A DNA stretch of 52,214 nucleotides from Bacillales bacterium UBA7057 (GTDB taxonomy: Bacteria > Bacillota_I > Bacilli_A > RF39 > UBA660). Each line of letters starts with the position of its first letter. Position 1 is the first letter of the stretch. Positions 7,401-52,214 of this stretch are shown here, one piece after another. Under the pieces are notes generated by a model. The model was given only the letters and a program-made list of their open reading frames with translations, did no database searches and was not told where the DNA came from. The stretch lies in NCBI GenBank assembly GCA_002493865.1, contig DLAC01000001.1:1330-53543 (forward strand). Reading direction: 5' to 3'. The translations under genes and the position numbers were made by a program.

Positions 7401-8981
7401 TTATAAAGCTAAGATAATTAAGAAAATAACAACTAAAATAGCTAATAATGTTAGGAATAATTTCCAAATAAATTTTAACCATTGTTTATAAGAAACATTT
7501 AAATAAGAAAGTGTACCCATTAAGATAAAGCTTGTTGGTGCTACTAATAAAGCTAATCCATAAATAGATTGGAAAATAACAGAAATTAATGGGTATAGAC
7601 TTGAATCAGTAATTACACTTTGAACATATGGTAATGTACTTTGTGTAACATAAGTTAAATCAACATTGAAGAATGATGATAATAATGATACAAGCGTCAT
7701 AGTTACAACATTGATACCTGAAGTAAGATCAAGCAAGAACTTCGCAATGGTTAATTGGAATGGATGATAAGTAACAACAACTAATACTACATAAGTTAAT
7801 AAGATAACTACAGCAGGTTCAATTGCTCTTTTAAATCCATCACAAATTCCGTCGATAAAGTCATCCCATTTTACACGATATACAAGTGCTAAAATAATAG
7901 TAGCAATCATAATGAGTGCAGGAATTTCAATACCTAAACTCCATTGACCAAATGCTTGAACTTGTCCTAATAATTTTCCAAAAATCTCAAATCCAAAGAT
8001 TTCATAAGTAGTTACAGCCTCTGTTGCATCTTGGAACCAAGAAATTTCGAATAAACCATTCCAATCAAAAACTGAAATTGCCATACAAATGAGTACAAGA
8101 TCAAAGATAATGGCAAATGGCCAAATATTTGCTTTCTTTTCTGATTTTGATTTAACTACCAAAGTTTCAGAATTCTCTTTTGCCATAGCTGCACTATTTT
8201 TTGCTGGACGTCCTCTCTTACCAGTTGATTTGGTAGTAGATTTAGTAGATTTCTTAGTAGTTTTAGATTTTGCTGGTTGTTTCGCAACCTTTTTAGATTC
8301 TTTTACTACTACTTTTTCTGGTTCTACCATTGCTTCTTCTTTTGGTGTTTCTTTGACTTCAACTGTAGAATTTTTTGTCTTTTTGCTATAAAGAACAACT
8401 TGTGCAATTAGTAATACGATGAAGATGACTAAGATAATTACTTTTGAAATCATCTCATCAAAAGCAGTCAATCCTAACATTTGATTCATATAACTAGTTG
8501 TCATCGTTCCAAGTGTTGTACCTGCAATACCAGCAACTGTTGATCCAACGGTAACTGTTGCAGCCACTAAACGGTTGTATCCCATTTTGATAACGACATC
8601 AATCACAAATGGAAATACAAAGATAATAGGAATTGAAATTCCAGTAACTGAAACAATTACAGAGATTAGAATGATGATAGCGCTTAGGAAAAGATATTCC
8701 ATTCCCTTAAAACCATCTACAATCCTTTCAACTAATTGATGATAGGCAGAAGTTCTGTAAGCGACTCCATAGAAAATACCACAAGTAAGTACAAATAATA
8801 AGATACTTCCAAAATATTGTAGTGCAATTCCTGGATAAGCAAATAGGTCAAACAATCCTGCTTGGATTCTCTCCCCTTCTACAAGAGTATCTGTGAATTG
8901 TGTACTAGGAAATATCCAAGAACAAATTGCAACAGCAACAATCGTAAAGAGAAGAACTTTTAAAATACTATGTTTCTTCAT
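7401..8981 (-). CDS. YfcC/DcuC-type polytopic membrane transporter with a lysine-rich AT-hook-like insertion
   Basis: Start refined to MKKHSILKVLLF after RBS GGGAGGG; the ORF track extends to 9095. About 10 or more hydrophobic helices. A central ~85-aa hydrophilic K/S/T-rich loop contains GKRGRPAK. Confidence 0.6.
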   Translation of the reverse strand: MKKHSILKVLLFTIVAVAICSWIFPSTQFTDTLVEGERIQAGLFDLFAYPGIALQYFGSILLFVLTCGIFYGVAYRTSAYHQLVERIVDGFKGMEYLFLSAIIILISVIVSVTGISIPIIFVFPFVIDVVIKMGYNRLVAATVTVGSTVAGIAGTTLGTMTTSYMNQMLGLTAFDEMISKVIILVIFIVLLIAQVVLYSKKTKNSTVEVKETPKEEAMVEPEKVVVKESKKVAKQPAKSKTTKKSTKSTTKSTGKRGRPAKNSAAMAKENSETLVVKSKSEKKANIWPFAIIFDLVLICMAISVFDWNGLFEISWFQDATEAVTTYEIFGFEIFGKLLGQVQAFGQWSLGIEIPALIMIATIILALVYRVKWDDFIDGICDGFKRAIEPAVVILLTYVVLVVVTYHPFQLTIAKFLLDLTSGINVVTMTLVSLLSSFFNVDLTYVTQSTLPYVQSVITDSSLYPLISVIFQSIYGLALLVAPTSFILMGTLSYLNVSYKQWLKFIWKLFLTLLAILVVIFLIILAL

Positions 8982-10645: not shown

Positions 10646-11605
10646 TTAATCTACCATGATTACTTTTGTTTTTGCGAGACGGTCATGAAGACCCCTTCCA
10701 GTATTAGAGTACATCACCATAAAGATAGAAACAATAATTAATACCGTTTGTATCCCTTGTACTGTAAAACTAGCGTAATAATAATACTCTCTTCCCATAA
10801 ATAAAACCAAAGCGATAATTAACATTTTACTAATAATAGATGGAATAATAAAAGATCTAAGAATATATTGATTCATACTTACTTCTCCATCATCCTCGGA
10901 AACAACCCGAATCCTTAGTAACCTTTTTCCAATCGTCTGCCCCTTATTATAGAATTGAAATACAATAAAATAAAGAATGAGTACTACAATCTCCATAATC
11001 ATAGGTAAAACATTATTATAATCGATATCATAAACGATTTCTGCAGTTTTATTTACATATTCATCAGAATCCATATTTCCCTCTAAGAAAGAAGATTGAA
11101 GTTTTTGATATTCTGTTAAATAAGCTGTATAGTTTTTGTTTTCTGGAACTACGCTAATAAATAGAGTAGAAAGAACGGTAACAATGATAATATCAATTAG
11201 ATATGCTAAAACTCTTGGAAAGAAATAAGCCTTTGGACGACTAGTTACTTTTTCTTCGATTGTTTTTGATTCTAATAAAACTTCCGCTACTTCTGGTTTT
11301 GCTTCCTCTTTTACTTCCGGTTCTAGCTGTTTTCCTTTTTTCTTTTTTACCTGTTTTTCTTCTGTTTCTTTTTTTGCTTTTATTTCTTTCGATGTCACTT
11401 TTTTTGAAGAATTTTTACTCTTTGACTTTGTAGTCTTAGTAGTAGTACTCTTTTTATTTTGAGTCTCTTTCTTTTTCTTTGCAGTAGATGGCTTCTCTTT
11501 TTTAGAAGAAGCCTTTTCTACAAACTCTCCCTCTACTGTTTTTCCTTTTTTTAAACGATTCGTTTCTTTCTTTGAATCTTCTTTATTTGTTGCCATGAAA
11601 TTCAC
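10646..11605 (-). CDS. RDD-family membrane protein with a ~125-aa lysine-rich N-terminal tail
   Basis: The C-terminal half matches the RDD pattern (FPRVLAYLIDIIIV ... GQTIGKRLLRIRVV ... RGLHDRLAKTKVI) with 3 TM helices. The N-terminus is low-complexity K/S/T/E. Confidence 0.65.
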   Translation of the reverse strand: MNFMATNKEDSKKETNRLKKGKTVEGEFVEKASSKKEKPSTAKKKKETQNKKSTTTKTTKSKSKNSSKKVTSKEIKAKKETEEKQVKKKKGKQLEPEVKEEAKPEVAEVLLESKTIEEKVTSRPKAYFFPRVLAYLIDIIIVTVLSTLFISVVPENKNYTAYLTEYQKLQSSFLEGNMDSDEYVNKTAEIVYDIDYNNVLPMIMEIVVLILYFIVFQFYNKGQTIGKRLLRIRVVSEDDGEVSMNQYILRSFIIPSIISKMLIIALVLFMGREYYYYASFTVQGIQTVLIIVSIFMVMYSNTGRGLHDRLAKTKVIMVD

Positions 11606-13418: not shown

Positions 13419-14534
13419 TTAATTAATATTAGATGGAATTTTCTCATACTGTAAAAATTTCGAATAAACTCTCGCATGTTCTTGAATGGTTTCTTTCGAA
13501 AGTTGATCTAAAGAATGAGATTTTACAAAGGAAGAATCTTGATATCGGTTAACTTCTACAAATTCCAAAAATGGTTTTATTTCCTTTAATACCCGCATAG
13601 TTGTTTTTACATCTTCCATGGTTTCTGTTGGATATCCTGCAATAATATGTGTATCTAATTTTTTGATAGAATCTTGATTAATAAATCGATAAAAGTCTAA
13701 AAACTCCTCAATTGTATATCCTTTATCCATAAGTCCAAGGATTCGATTATCCCCAGATTCTAGAGAACCACAAATTGTTTTTACTTTACTAGACCTCTTT
13801 AATGAATATTTAAAATCATGATGAATGGCATCCCTAAAAGCAAATCCAACAAGTATTACATTTTTTATATGTTCCTTTTCTTCTATATAGTCAATGAAAG
13901 AAGGTAATAAATATTCTTGATGTGTATCTAAACCAAATTGACTGATATTCATTCCCCTAATATAAACCGTTTCAATCCCCTTTTGATCCATAGTATCCAC
14001 CAATGTTTTTGCGCCAGAAATATCCATACTAACTAATGGAATTTTTTGAAAAGTTGTCTTACAAAAAGCACATTGATTTAAACAACCACTAGAAATATAT
14101 AGATTGGCCATATGATCATCCAAAGCATCTCTAGATACAAAACCGAATTCATAAAATTCATCATCAAACTTTTCTTTCAATAAATCACTCAATAACTCAT
14201 TTATTTTAGTACTTGGAATTATATGATCAATATGAGTATTTAAATAGTTACGAATATTAGTAAATTGACTAGGATCTAAAAAGTCACGAGCTAAACAACC
14301 GGTTAAATAGGTTTTAGCCTCCGGCTTCTTTTTTTCTAAAATAAAATCTATATAACCAATCATCATATAAATTCTGTCCTTGTAGCATGAACAAGTAGAA
14401 GCAAAAATAATGACATCTGCTTCCTCTGGTTGCGTAACAAATTCATACCCCTCAATTCTCTCTAATTCACACATAATTTCAGAGTATTGATAGTTTACAC
14501 CACAACTAAAATTTTTACCCATAAATATTTTCAT
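13419..14534 (-). CDS. Radical SAM enzyme, methylthiotransferase (MiaB/RimO)-like, without a TRAM domain
   Basis: CxxxCxxC radical SAM motif in SSGCLNQCAFCKT. The N-terminal UPF0004-like domain has three spaced Cys (NFSCGVN, ASTCSC, LTGCLA). The protein ends about 40 aa after the radical SAM core, leaving no room for a TRAM domain. The start overlaps the C1 stop (ATGA). Confidence 0.8.
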   Translation of the reverse strand: MKIFMGKNFSCGVNYQYSEIMCELERIEGYEFVTQPEEADVIIFASTCSCYKDRIYMMIGYIDFILEKKKPEAKTYLTGCLARDFLDPSQFTNIRNYLNTHIDHIIPSTKINELLSDLLKEKFDDEFYEFGFVSRDALDDHMANLYISSGCLNQCAFCKTTFQKIPLVSMDISGAKTLVDTMDQKGIETVYIRGMNISQFGLDTHQEYLLPSFIDYIEEKEHIKNVILVGFAFRDAIHHDFKYSLKRSSKVKTICGSLESGDNRILGLMDKGYTIEEFLDFYRFINQDSIKKLDTHIIAGYPTETMEDVKTTMRVLKEIKPFLEFVEVNRYQDSSFVKSHSLDQLSKETIQEHARVYSKFLQYEKIPSNIN

Positions 14535-15244
14535 TGTTTGTAACCCCCTAATGTTTTTTGTTTCACACCATCAGAAACTTCCCACTCTTCTCCACCAAGA
14601 AAGGTATGTCCATTCAAAAGTTCATTTCTAAATAAACAATAAAATTTTAAACCCATTGGAAGAGAAACTATAGGAGACTTTCTATCCGATAAATATTCTT
14701 CATGAGACACTTGATTTAAAACAGTAGGATGTACCAAATCCTCATAATCTTTTTCTGAAATCCCTAAATTACTTGTATAGTCAATGATCTTATTCTTTCT
14801 TCGAATATAACTATGTACTACTCGAACCTTTCCACTGGAGTCATCTACATAGGAAGTTTCTAGAATTCCTCCAAGCGAATTAAAAAAATAGAAACTTCTA
14901 AAATGACACTCTCCCTTTCGTTTGTCATGAGTTAGCAATTCTAACTTGTAAGGGATTAATTTGATGGGGTGATTACCAGTTAGTACATCAGAAAACCTAG
15001 AAAACTCTAGAAATTTTTCTCCAAACCAAAGTCTATATTTATCATGATTTTCTCTTTGTAATTTAAAACCCATTTTGTTATATTTCATATGACGAAAAGG
15101 ATTACAAGAAGTATAGGCACGAATCGCACCCATTCTAGTATCAAATTCTATATCCTTAGGCTCTGCAAAAAACATTTGCACATTTCCCATATGAATTCCA
15201 TAAGAGTTATATTTAATATTTTTATCCCTAATTGTAAAATTCAC
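14531..15244 (-). CDS. Unknown-family protein C1 (237 aa), paralog of 12680-13390
   Basis: Likely GTG start (VNFTIRDKNIKYNSYGIHMGN) after RBS AGGGGTGG; the ORF-track TTG start is at 15283. Long collinear similarity to C2, strongest in the C-terminal 90 aa. Confidence 0.7.
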   Translation of the reverse strand: MNFTIRDKNIKYNSYGIHMGNVQMFFAEPKDIEFDTRMGAIRAYTSCNPFRHMKYNKMGFKLQRENHDKYRLWFGEKFLEFSRFSDVLTGNHPIKLIPYKLELLTHDKRKGECHFRSFYFFNSLGGILETSYVDDSSGKVRVVHSYIRRKNKIIDYTSNLGISEKDYEDLVHPTVLNQVSHEEYLSDRKSPIVSLPMGLKFYCLFRNELLNGHTFLGGEEWEVSDGVKQKTLGGYKQ

Positions 15245-15294: not shown

Positions 15295-15744
15295 TTAGCG
15301 TTCATATTTGAAGTTTCTCATATAAACTACTTGATCTGGATCCCTTCCCATATCACGAAGTTGCTTATCAAGTTCTTCTTTTTTCATCGGAACATCTGGT
15401 TCTGGATGATTATAGCTTTCAACAAGCATAGAAATAAACCCGTTCTTTGTATCACGAAATTCTTCATCTGATTGAACGTCTTGCATGCTTGCATTCACAA
15501 CATCTAGAAATTGTTGTACTCTGTTTTGACGCATCGCATAAATTAATAATTGACTGCTATGCTCCATGAAAAATGAAAAAATTGCTACATCCATCATTTG
15601 ATCTGGATTTCTTTTGACAAGACGCTCAAAATAAGCCATCTCTTCATAAGTAATCACTAACTTTCCATAATAATGCCACCAATGTTTTAACAATTTTGTC
15701 TTTTCATCTTCTGAATATTGATCCCATTCTTTGATTTCCATCAT
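15295..15744 (-). CDS. Unknown-family protein A (149 aa)
   Basis: MEIKEWDQYSEDEKTKLLKHWWHYYGKLV. RBS AAAGGGGAAC. Paralog of the interrupted gene at 16499-16924. No recognisable motif. Confidence 0.65.
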   Translation of the reverse strand: MMEIKEWDQYSEDEKTKLLKHWWHYYGKLVITYEEMAYFERLVKRNPDQMMDVAIFSFFMEHSSQLLIYAMRQNRVQQFLDVVNASMQDVQSDEEFRDTKNGFISMLVESYNHPEPDVPMKKEELDKQLRDMGRDPDQVVYMRNFKYER

Positions 15745-15763: not shown

Positions 15764-16483
15764 CTAAAAGCTTCCTTTTTTCTTTTGAACTTCCGAATTT
15801 TCTTCTAACACTTCTTCCCCATCTTCTAGTGCTGGATCCTCTTTAATAAGGGCCAGTTCCTCTAATACATCCCCTAGCTCATCTTTAAAAAATTGAATAG
15901 CTGCATCCATATCTTGATTAGAGAATCTTTTAACTTCTTCCATTTGAATACAATCTAACACTTCAGAATAATAAGAAAGAATTTTAGATTTTCCTAAAGT
16001 TTCTATTCGTATCTGATTTAAAAACACATGTTCTTTATATTCACGAATATAAGATATTAGTTGATCAAAATTCGTAGTTGCTTGAATTGGGAACATCCCA
16101 TTGATTGCTTTCTCAATTTTTTCTTTGTTAGTATCTTCCACTTGTGGTGATACTAATTCACGAATTACACCCATATCTCCATCCATGAGTCGGTCAATGA
16201 GAGAAACTAATTTTGGTAGTTGATAACTAACATATTCCCATTGATAAATAGGAATTGTTTGGTTGGAAGACGGTATTGATTCATTATATAAAAATCTCTT
16301 TTTTACATCGGTAATTGTTTCTCCCTCTTTTGGCATTACTTCTTTAGGCCCTGCACAAGAAATCTTAGTTGCCTCTATACATCTTTCTGAAACAGTTTCT
16401 CGAATTCTTTGTAATTTTACAAAGTCAATGGTCACATCGTATTTAACTGTTTCATTTCCTTCACTTACGTAATAAATCATCAT
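15764..16483 (-). CDS. Unknown-family acidic protein B (239 aa)
   Basis: RBS AGAGGGGAC. Strongly acidic C-terminal tail (EDPALEDGEEVLEENSE). No recognisable motif. Lies 15 nt downstream of the preceding gene. Confidence 0.6.
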   Translation of the reverse strand: MMIYYVSEGNETVKYDVTIDFVKLQRIRETVSERCIEATKISCAGPKEVMPKEGETITDVKKRFLYNESIPSSNQTIPIYQWEYVSYQLPKLVSLIDRLMDGDMGVIRELVSPQVEDTNKEKIEKAINGMFPIQATTNFDQLISYIREYKEHVFLNQIRIETLGKSKILSYYSEVLDCIQMEEVKRFSNQDMDAAIQFFKDELGDVLEELALIKEDPALEDGEEVLEENSEVQKKKGSF

Positions 16484-16498: not shown

Positions 16499-16924
16499 CT
16501 AAGAAAAATAATGTTTTGTTATTTCTCTCCTAACTTTTATTCCTAGTTCTACGGCGCCTGTTGTAATTTCTTGCTCATCAGTAGTTGCCATAGTAATATT
16601 ACATAATCCAACAAGTGTAGTAATAATTTGTTTTTTTAGAAATTGATGGTCTTCATCATCACTCAAACTAGGTACATCTGCTAGCAACTTATCCAAGGAT
16701 CCATTTCGCATAACTTGAATCATTGTCTCAGCATTATGACCCAACGTTGTTAAGATAACAATAAAATCCAGAATTAAATCAATATCTCTTTCTAATAAAT
16801 GATTAAAATATTCCCTATCTTCTTTCGTAAGAATATCCTGATTTCTGTTAGAATAAGCAAATCAAAAATTTAATAAAATTCTCTTTTCAGAAAAAGAATA
16901 CTGATCCCAAGGCTTAATTTCCAT
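16499..16924 (-). pseudogene. Paralog A' of protein A, interrupted by a single in-frame TGA (codon 21, nt 16864-16862)
   Basis: ATG at 16924 after RBS GAAGGAGAGGG gives MEIKPWDQYSFSEKRILLNF-TGA-FAYSNRNQDILTKEDREYFNHLLERD. This continues in the same frame into track ORF 16499-16744. The total of 426 nt is a multiple of 3. The TGA aligns with W21 of paralog A (LLKHWWHYYG). Confidence 0.7.
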
Positions 16925-16951: not shown

Positions 16952-16980
16952 ATATTAGCACAAAAGACATAAAAAGTCAA
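16952..16980 (-). promoter_or_regulatory. Sigma-A-type promoter of the six-gene cassette (TTGACT-17-TAATAT, TG at the extended -10 position)
   Basis: The minus strand reads TTGACTTTTTATGTCTTTTGTGCTAATAT, immediately after the ftsH terminator and about 25 nt upstream of the A' RBS. Confidence 0.55.
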
Positions 16981-16994
16981 TCAATTGTTGCTCG

Positions 16995-17018
16995 AAAAAA
17001 AAGAGGTTAATCCTCTTT
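16995..17018 (-). terminator. Rho-independent terminator of ftsH
   Basis: The minus strand reads AAAGAGGATTAACCTCTTTTTTTT. The hairpin includes the ftsH stop codon. Confidence 0.65.
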
Positions 17019-33420: not shown

Positions 33421-33642
33421 AAAAAAACGATCTTTCTTCCATAAGGACGAAAAATCGCGGTACCACCTTAATTGATAAATATAGAATTTATCCACTTGAT
33501 TCCTTAACGCGGAAATTTCGTATAAACCTACATATCGATTTATCTGTTCTGGAACCATCTATTATAATCTTTCTATATCTCTTTCACCAAACGAGACTCT
33601 CTTAAATAGAAATCATATAACTCTTTCCTTCATAACATTTGC
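33421..33642 (-). promoter_or_regulatory. T-box riboswitch leader (probable Met/AUG specifier) with intrinsic terminator
   Basis: The minus strand carries the canonical T-box sequence AAGGTGGTACCGCG (33456-33469). A terminator follows: CGATTTTTCGTCC-TTAT-GGAAGAAAGATCG plus a T7 run. Stem I elements are ATGAAGGAAAGAG, the AGAGAG bay and the GGTGAAAG distal loop. The candidate specifier is ATG in AATAGATGGTTCC (33556-33558). Confidence 0.8.
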
Positions 33643-52058: not shown

Positions 52059-52081
52059 TATTATCACTTCCAAACAAAAAA

Positions 52082-52158
52082 GTGCACATAAATATATAAT
52101 GTTAAGGCTGCTATCTTCCGATCCTGACCTGGTTCCATCAATATTTATTGCACGTATA
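52082..52158 (-). ncRNA. ffs: Signal recognition particle RNA, short 4.5S-like form
   Basis: The minus strand reads GTGCAATAAATATTGATGGAACCAGGTCAGGATCGGAAGATAGCAGCCTTAACATTATATATTTATGTGCAC. It contains the conserved domain IV core CCAGGTCAGG.CCGGAAG.AAGCAGCC. The flanking arms pair with each other. TTTTTTG follows, and a TATAAT box lies at 52165-52170. Confidence 0.75.
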
Positions 52159-52214
52159 TATTCTATTATATTTTTTTAAAAAAAACAAGAATTATTATTA
52201 ATTTTATGTTTCAC

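Follow-up and report, generated by a model that had tools for sequence, protein, structure and literature searches.

What does a methylthiotransferase (MTTase) act on once it has lost a domain that all of its characterised relatives retain? This question is raised by a radical SAM gene for a 371-aa protein in a 52,214-nucleotide stretch of Bacillales bacterium UBA7057 (GenBank assembly GCA_002493865.1, contig DLAC01000001.1, positions 1,330–53,543 of the forward strand), the whole of which is referred to as the window. All four characterised MTTase clades carry a TRAM domain, three of the four act on tRNA, and only two types of substrate are known, namely derivatives of tRNA A37 and Asp88 of ribosomal protein S12 (PMC10702137, PMC2952846). 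The first-pass annotation of this DNA had described a two-cluster enzyme without TRAM, and had suggested that paralogous proteins encoded on both sides of it (here C1 and C2) deliver a different kind of substrate. The description of the enzyme was borne out, and we regard its class and the loss of TRAM as solid; the partner proposal fared worse and is mostly refuted at the family level. The gene is best read as encoding a stand-alone, TRAM-less member of the MTTase superfamily with an accessory role, a non-canonical target, and no family-wide partner, a reading to which we assign a probability of roughly 55%.

A Pfam search of the product returned UPF0004 (PF00919, E = 1.3e-9) and Radical_SAM (PF04055, E = 1e-8), both above their gathering scores, and no TRAM match (PF01938) even at E ≤ 1; E-values of this size lie well outside what chance would produce. 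The previously quoted cysteine motifs, three in the N-terminal domain plus CxxxCxxC, are all present in the open reading frame (ORF). In an alignment of 31 sequences of the family defined below, with identities as low as 39%, C11, C48, C80, C151, C155, and C158 do not vary, and neither do the GFPTET and ESGS..L..M.K motifs. The three cysteines of the N-terminal domain of MiaB ligate its auxiliary cluster. In a profile alignment to the B. uniformis MiaB structures 7mjv/7mjz (E = 2e-24), C11, C48, and C80 align with these three (GCQMN, NTCS, and LGCM), which marks them as candidate ligands of an auxiliary cluster. The best match of the family profile among solved structures was T. maritima RimO 4jc0 (E = 2.7e-29), for which the alignment does not start until profile position 19 and thus includes the second and third N-terminal cysteines but not the first.

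On TIGR00089, the MiaB/RimO family model of NCBIfam, the enzyme obtained an E-value of 1.5e-38 and 132.7 bits, which is below the curated cut-off of 251 and compares with 335–494 bits for canonical MiaB, MtaB, and e-MtaB controls. The match covers profile positions 5–351 of 429 only, and the TRAM part of the profile is thus unmatched. For 13 canonical MTTases, the C-terminal 85 residues were made into an ad hoc hidden Markov model (HMM), which recovered TRAM in the canonical controls; no match was obtained for the enzyme, for the ORFs of the window, or in the vicinity of the family members. Neither this HMM nor Pfam scans of neighbouring proteins revealed a split or stand-alone TRAM gene near the family loci. 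In alignments with RimO and MiaB and in a column comparison, the last 56 residues of the enzyme correspond to the linker (canonically YSxRxGTxA...R...L) that precedes TRAM, and within the family this segment (mean column identity, 0.56) equals the UPF0004 domain in its degree of conservation. All family members stop at the same point and all lack TRAM, indicating that the loss has been fixed and is not a truncation artefact.

The family was delimited by a search of 5.8 billion proteins, which yielded approximately 63 clusters (353–391 aa, 39–99% identity), none of them with TRAM; below these, the scores fall sharply to canonical MTTases (≤78 bits). There is no dedicated Pfam or NCBIfam model for it, and where its members carry a source name at all, the name is 'radical SAM protein [Bacilli bacterium]'. 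When family-specific peptide patterns were run against a genome collection with a single genome for each species, the family was located in approximately 37 metagenome-assembled genomes (MAGs) titled uncultured Bacilli, Bacillales, Tenericutes, Mycoplasma, or Erysipelotrichaceae, with mouse, rabbit, ruminant, and human gut as the sources given in the record titles. Two genomes contain two copies. A mobile-element origin was rejected, because no close relatives of the enzyme were found in IMG/VR or in phage or plasmid records. Literature searches for TRAM-less MTTases turned up only publications that describe MTTases as three-domain enzymes. Judging from these searches, the family adds to the MTTase superfamily a variant that is new, unannotated, and confined to uncultured gut Bacilli.

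The family also lies outside the MiaB, MtaB, e-MtaB, and RimO clades. The scores of the enzyme on the clade-specific NCBIfam HMMs were 112 bits against a cut-off of 357 for MtaB (TIGR01579), 102 against 315 for e-MtaB (TIGR01578), 84 against 355 for MiaB (TIGR01574), and 80 against 357 for RimO (TIGR01125). When neighbour-joining (NJ) trees were computed together with labelled references for MiaB, MtaB, e-MtaB, and RimO (E. coli/Klebsiella), the family was monophyletic in 200 of 200 bootstraps; it was joined, equally in 200 of 200 and apart from all four reference clades, by T2a and T2b, uncharacterised MTTase-like paralogues (420–447 aa, ~25–27% identity) that the genome scan detected in MAGs of similar gut Bacilli. 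T2a and T2b obtained 145–169 bits on TIGR00089, under every NCBIfam cut-off. Neither Pfam nor the ad hoc HMM matched TRAM in them; by eye, their C-terminal ~60–70 aa are TRAM-like (IGD[IV]V..P..LVK). The context of T2a is constant and of housekeeping type, clpB(-like)-DUF3419-T2a-hrcA-grpE-dnaK. A longer MTTase-like gene of the T2a/T2b type coexists with the family in at least five related genomes, so that the family gene is not the only MTTase-like gene in those MAGs. Throughout the clade formed by the family, T2a, and T2b, several residues that are invariant in canonical MTTases have been replaced; among other changes, Arg has been lost at positions 164, 227, 334, and 353 of the window enzyme, and Gln259 has become Glu (Q259E).

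The evolutionary behaviour of the gene points to an accessory role. When the window was compared with four homologous loci (individual loci are designated by L-numbers; L087, L004, L005, and L006), the enzyme showed non-synonymous divergence (dN) of 0.18–0.36 at synonymous divergence (dS) of ~0.8–1.1. At comparable dS, dN was 0.015–0.07 for ftsH, lysS, and dus and 0.07–0.19 for tilS. The corresponding dN/dS ratios are ~0.25–0.4 for the enzyme versus ~0.02–0.14 for these four genes, and in the genus of the window the non-synonymous rate of the enzyme is ~3–20 times that of the neighbouring housekeeping genes. In addition, the window and L085 differ in a mosaic patch that spans the tail of C2 and the N-terminal half of the enzyme, whereas for most of the 5 kb compared its flanks are ~99–100% identical, falling to 83 and 91% in two short 100-nt stretches. 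This patch is interpreted as an allelic replacement or gene conversion; both alleles were found in several samples, and the L085 allele lacks the ATGA overlap by which, in the window, the C2 stop codon overlaps the start codon of the enzyme. Disrupted copies of the family gene occur in at least four lineages (L040 2809–3892, L096, L097, L099, L101, L103 8001–9088, L029, L037, and L028). Two identical in-frame stops are common to L040, L096, L097, and L101, the first of which is also present in L099, the fifth independent assembly of that lineage; the copy in L103 is split, and that in L022, which is 97% identical, is intact. Among 55 sampled loci, 44 gave a single full-length match, three of these with in-frame stops. 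High dN, the mosaic patch, and recurrent pseudogenes make the gene look accessory, whereas a dN/dS below 1, invariant cysteines and motifs, and a conserved tail indicate functional constraint. The gene thus appears to be functional but dispensable and fast-evolving in the genus of the window.

That the enzyme still modifies tRNA or rRNA, with RNA binding supplied by a partner such as a U32-family hydroxylase, is the alternative that survives best, although we consider it doubtful. Such an activity would accord with the tRNA substrates of most known clades, with MtaB and e-MtaB being the best-scoring specific HMMs, with the position of the enzyme between tilS and dus in the clade of the window, and with chimera work in which TRAM was suggested to be a non-specific clamp and not a specificity determinant (PMC2952846). 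In L012 (7968–11119), L009 (7981–11119), and L036, the stop codon of a gene for a 680-aa protein with Peptidase_U32 and DUF3656 domains overlaps the start codon of the enzyme (ATGA). We take this domain architecture to match that of RlhA, the hydroxylase that generates 5-hydroxycytidine 2501 (ho5C2501) in 23S rRNA. L009 and L012 represent two species, between which the enzyme is 99% identical and the U32 protein 93.6% identical. The second family copy of MAG CANOBK01 (L020 9302–13822) has a trmR (yrrM)-like O-methyltransferase gene on one side and two yrrN/yrrO-like U32 genes on the other, with ruvX and mltG upstream of it; it is enclosed by terminator-like hairpins, however, and therefore looks like its own transcription unit. 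Adjacency to U32 genes was seen in two independent contexts out of ~28 and is the best, albeit weak, hint towards RNA. The protein is acidic (pI 5.3; family median, 5.6), it has lost several canonical-invariant Arg residues, and the dispensability and fast evolution that it shows in the genus of the window would be unusual for a core RNA-modification enzyme; these features, too, speak against RNA modification with a partner.

Other family loci adjoin recA, rplU-rpmA, or a sigma factor gene, and some are situated in RHS/holin/Bro-N/RhuM or ORF6N regions or beside ADP-ribosylglycohydrolase, Fic, and SIR2 genes. As a separate observation, a member with 53% identity in L003/L008/L093 (1–11471) lies downstream of genes for an RHS-repeat protein, DUF5071, an M23/LysM peptidase, and a holin and upstream of Bro-N and RhuM genes; these surroundings resemble a polymorphic-toxin or prophage remnant.

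In the window itself, the enzyme belongs to an island on the minus strand between ftsH and dus, with the order 141-aa-type gene, p239, p149, C2, enzyme, and C1 (Table 1). The TGA that breaks the first of these genes is codon 21, at which L085 has TGG (Trp); the product is 141 aa in L085, L087, and L004, and the copy in the window is a pseudogene unless translation resumes at the TTG of an 81-aa ORF. Searches of Pfam, NCBIfam, PADLOC, PHROGs, and PDB sequences gave no match for p149. For p239, Pfam, NCBIfam, and PDB sequences gave none, and the sole match of the island to PADLOC is a weak one of this protein to an Argonaute-associated model (E = 5.5e-4); the enzyme, C1, and C2 match no known defence system in PADLOC, and a PHROGs scan of the island proteins gave nothing below E = 0.05. 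When riboswitches and RiPPs were considered, no Rfam element was found near the island; no search aimed at small precursor ORFs of ribosomally synthesized and post-translationally modified peptides (RiPPs) was made. The gene for an RDD-domain protein next to dus is likewise fast-evolving (dN 0.16–0.40 versus relatives), and its product has a long N-terminal region rich in Lys, Ser, and Thr. Elsewhere in the window, a T-box leader (108 bits) and a small signal recognition particle (SRP) RNA (62.6 bits) were detected; no tRNA genes were found in the window.

Table 1. Features of the ftsH-dus island and of the TRAM-less enzyme in the window, with the loci of the related T2a and T2b genes
Feature	Position	Strand	Remarks
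TRAM-less MTTase-like radical SAM gene	13419–14534	-	371-aa ORF; Pfam, TIGR00089, family search
UPF0004 (MTTase N-terminal) domain	14286–14516	-	Residues 7–83; Pfam, family alignment, MiaB/RimO alignments
Candidate auxiliary-cluster ligands	C11, 14502–14504; C48, 14391–14393; C80, 14295–14297	-	
Radical SAM core	13590–14099	-	Residues 146–315; Pfam, invariant cysteines, kept motifs
CxxxCxxC motif	14061–14084	-	C151, C155, C158; invariant in family
Conserved C-terminal segment	13422–13589	-	Residues 316–371; equivalent of pre-TRAM linker; protein end
Mosaic patch (allelic)	13880–14598		~650 bp, ~70% nucleotide identity to L085 (about 7940–8650); C2 tail and enzyme residues 1 to ~215
C1	12680–13390	-	Likely true coordinates; ATG start, GAGGTG ribosome-binding site, 236 aa; immediately upstream of dus
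C2	14531–15244	-	Likely true coordinates; GTG start, 237 aa; conserved Cys126-His157-Asp168
p149	15295–15744	-	No assigned function; variable island; paralogue of first island gene; homologues in L004, L005, L085, L087
p239	15764–16483	-	Island protein, no assigned function; homologues in L004, L085, L087
First island gene (141-aa type)	16499–16924	-	p149 paralogue; broken by in-frame TGA at 16862–16864
ftsH terminator-like hairpin and promoter-like site	16952–17018	-	Hairpin 17000–17018, then promoter-like site 16952–16980 ahead of island; consensus scan only
RDD-domain protein	10646–11605	-	Next to dus
T-box leader	33440–33642	-	
Small SRP RNA	52066–52164	-	
T2a genes	L042 9887–11152; L049, L063, L068		Uncharacterised MTTase-like paralogues
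T2b genes	L041 653–1996; L043, L046, L051, L069, L071, and others		Uncharacterised MTTase-like paralogues

C1 and C2 are paralogues, as had been noted, and share 41% identity. Their close family comprises 8 clusters; their distant relatives, which are of similar length, numbered 183 in an exhaustive profile search, whereas a word-indexed search with the broad alignment of C-like proteins found few distant members. Among 80 C-like sequences, there is no variation at Cys126 or His157, and Asp168 is kept in at least 90%. C1 and C2 themselves match no Pfam family; among the 80 relatives, 7 match PF04473 (DUF553, transglutaminase-like), with a best E-value of 6.3e-5. The AlphaFold2 (AF2) model of C2 was poor with a 10-sequence alignment (predicted local distance difference test, pLDDT, 48) and reached a pLDDT of 84.6 with the 80-sequence alignment. 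In the latter model, the Cys is placed at the N-terminus of a helix (126–137) and the His and Asp on strands (153–162 and 165–168), respectively. The model had no match at E < 0.01 in Foldseek searches of PDB and BFVD, nor did C2 in a PDB sequence-profile search. C1 and C2 thus resemble transglutaminase/papain-like enzymes in the Cys-His-Asp order and in the helix-strand-strand placement, and differ from them in having no direct Pfam, Foldseek, or PDB-profile match. Because of this triad geometry and the weak Pfam matches of their relatives, they are probably enzymes of this type and not adaptors.

That C1 and C2 replace TRAM in trans, with the enzyme methylthiolating a protein that is delivered by, or identical to, one of them, is in our opinion unlikely. 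Flanking C-like genes are indeed present at each of the six syntenic loci of the genus, the ATGA overlap with C2 leaves room for a genus-specific interaction, and RimO provides a precedent for a protein substrate of an MTTase (PMC10702137). However, the enzyme and a C gene occur together at the ftsH-dus site only in the genus of the window (the window, L004, L005, L006, L085, and L087), where the loci differ in how many C genes they carry and in how these are arranged relative to the enzyme, and in L004 a frameshifted C gene stands beside an intact enzyme. No C-like gene was found within 10 kb of the other family loci of the genome scan, even with a broad profile, and a profile search of 12 metagenome loci of the family found one only in L104, which represents the lineage of the window itself. 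The neighbours of ~30 other family loci are unrelated: when 103 neighbour proteins from these loci were clustered and scanned with Pfam, no recurrent partner family emerged and no Pfam family was present in more than three of the proteins. Conversely, C-like genes are found without the enzyme at the ftsH-dus site, between ftsH and dus in L092, adjoining ftsH in L089 (ftsH-C), and adjoining dus in L090 and L091 (C-dus), and L088 carries one at another site. The order in L092 (5837–8711) is tilS-ftsH-175aa-502aa-C-dus-RDD-lysS, with the 175- and 502-aa proteins unannotated. The sole supporting case for a C link outside the genus is L065 (7759–11188), in which a protein-kinase-like ORF is followed by a gene for a 436-aa protein with two tandem C-like domains and then, directly downstream, by an MTTase-like gene; the latter is different from the family, has a TRAM-region match, and is apparently frameshifted, with only the 3' 220 codons in one ORF. 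Restriction of C genes with the enzyme to one genus, C sites without the enzyme, and the Cys-His-Asp set all argue against substrate-delivering partners. The ftsH-dus gap appears to be a hotspot of variable content in the lineage of the window, and C1 and C2 are best regarded as co-residents of this variable island and not as a conserved delivery system.

A role in inter-genomic conflict (defence or toxin/immunity), with the hypervariable N-terminal half of the enzyme tracking a changing target, seems less likely still. It would account for an island that is far more divergent than its flanks and variable in gene content, for the 650-bp mosaic replacement between strains with near-identical flanks, for recurrent pseudogenisation, and for the RHS, holin, Bro-N, RhuM, ORF6N, ADP-ribosylglycohydrolase, Fic, and SIR2 genes that stand beside some members. 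It is at odds with the lack of PADLOC matches for the enzyme and the C proteins and of PHROGs matches below E = 0.1, the absence of the family from viral, phage, and plasmid records, the plain housekeeping contexts (recA, rplU-rpmA, U32, and sigma factor genes) of many loci, a dN/dS below 1, and the high conservation of the U32-coupled lineage. Finally, a decaying, functionless remnant of a tRNA MTTase without its C-terminus, to which the frameshifted or stop-containing copies of several lineages and the high non-synonymous rate in the genus might point, is very improbable given the 44 of 55 full-length loci, the six cysteines and core motifs that are invariant down to 39% identity, the uniform end point and conserved tail, a dN/dS of ~0.3, and the 99% identity of the enzyme between two species in which the adjacent gene differs by 6%.

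Our preferred reading is therefore that of a stand-alone enzyme, which is probably active. By homology with MiaB and RimO, an auxiliary [4Fe-4S] cluster on C11, C48, and C80 would carry the sulfur to be methylated by one S-adenosylmethionine (SAM); a second SAM would be cleaved by the radical SAM cluster on C151, C155, and C158, and the resulting 5'-deoxyadenosyl radical would take a hydrogen from a substrate carbon, which would then receive the -SCH3 group. The family may derive from three-domain, lineage-specific paralogues, T2a and T2b, whose C-terminal domain would have been lost cleanly along the way. Its role would be accessory and dispensable, its target something other than tRNA A37 or S12 Asp88, and no dedicated partner would be encoded adjacent to it family-wide. 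As to the substrate, RNA at a site other than the canonical one is the leading candidate, though held tentatively, and is ranked slightly ahead of a protein or peptide, which is conceivable; a small molecule seems rather unlikely, and complete lack of activity more unlikely again. It may tentatively be proposed that the family constitutes a fifth functional class of MTTases, adding a methylthio or thio group to a target that is neither tRNA A37 nor S12 Asp88. Candidate targets would be a different RNA position, modified in concert with a U32-family hydroxylase, and a protein or metabolite peculiar to gut Bacilli.

Several points weigh against this reading. The NJ tree that places the family in a separate clade was built on saturated distances. 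The ATGA couplings, with C2 in the window and with the U32 gene in L009, L012, and L036, imply that lineage-local partners may exist. Lastly, the near-identity of the enzyme between the two species of the U32-coupled lineage means that the picture of an accessory, fast-evolving gene is not universal.

A conserved clade that has dispensed with TRAM and kept both Fe-S sites amounts to a natural experiment on the purpose of this domain, and it is a candidate for a new class of MTTase substrate. If the proposal of a fifth class is correct, MTTase chemistry would be extended to such a substrate class. In uncultured gut Bacilli, divergent MTTase-like genes have moreover undergone a lineage-specific expansion, of which the family is part; this suggests that there is unexplored sulfur-insertion chemistry in common, uncultivated members of the animal gut microbiota.

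Among the known systems, MtaB and e-MtaB, which form 2-methylthio-N6-threonylcarbamoyladenosine (ms2t6A) in tRNA, share with the enzyme the UPF0004 domain with three Cys, the CxxxCxxC motif, and GFPxET; the enzyme differs from them in falling far below their cut-offs, in lacking TRAM, in forming a separate clade, and in the replacement of canonical invariant residues. The profile alignment to MiaB, the enzyme of 2-methylthio-N6-isopentenyladenosine (ms2i6A) formation, spans the UPF0004 domain as well as the radical SAM domain and pairs all six cluster cysteines with those of MiaB, whereas the family has no counterpart of its TRAM domain and the score on its specific HMM is low. RimO, the MTTase of S12 Asp88 and the only known one with a protein substrate, provides the best match not only among solved structures but also among annotated plasmid records (~25% identity over residues 8–365). 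It differs in having kept TRAM, which has been reported to contact S12 (PMC2952846), and the family stands outside its clade. The nearest relatives are T2a and T2b, which share with the family the derived Q259E replacement and an 'FCK' motif after the radical SAM cysteines and have a C-terminal module of ~60–70 aa that the family lacks.

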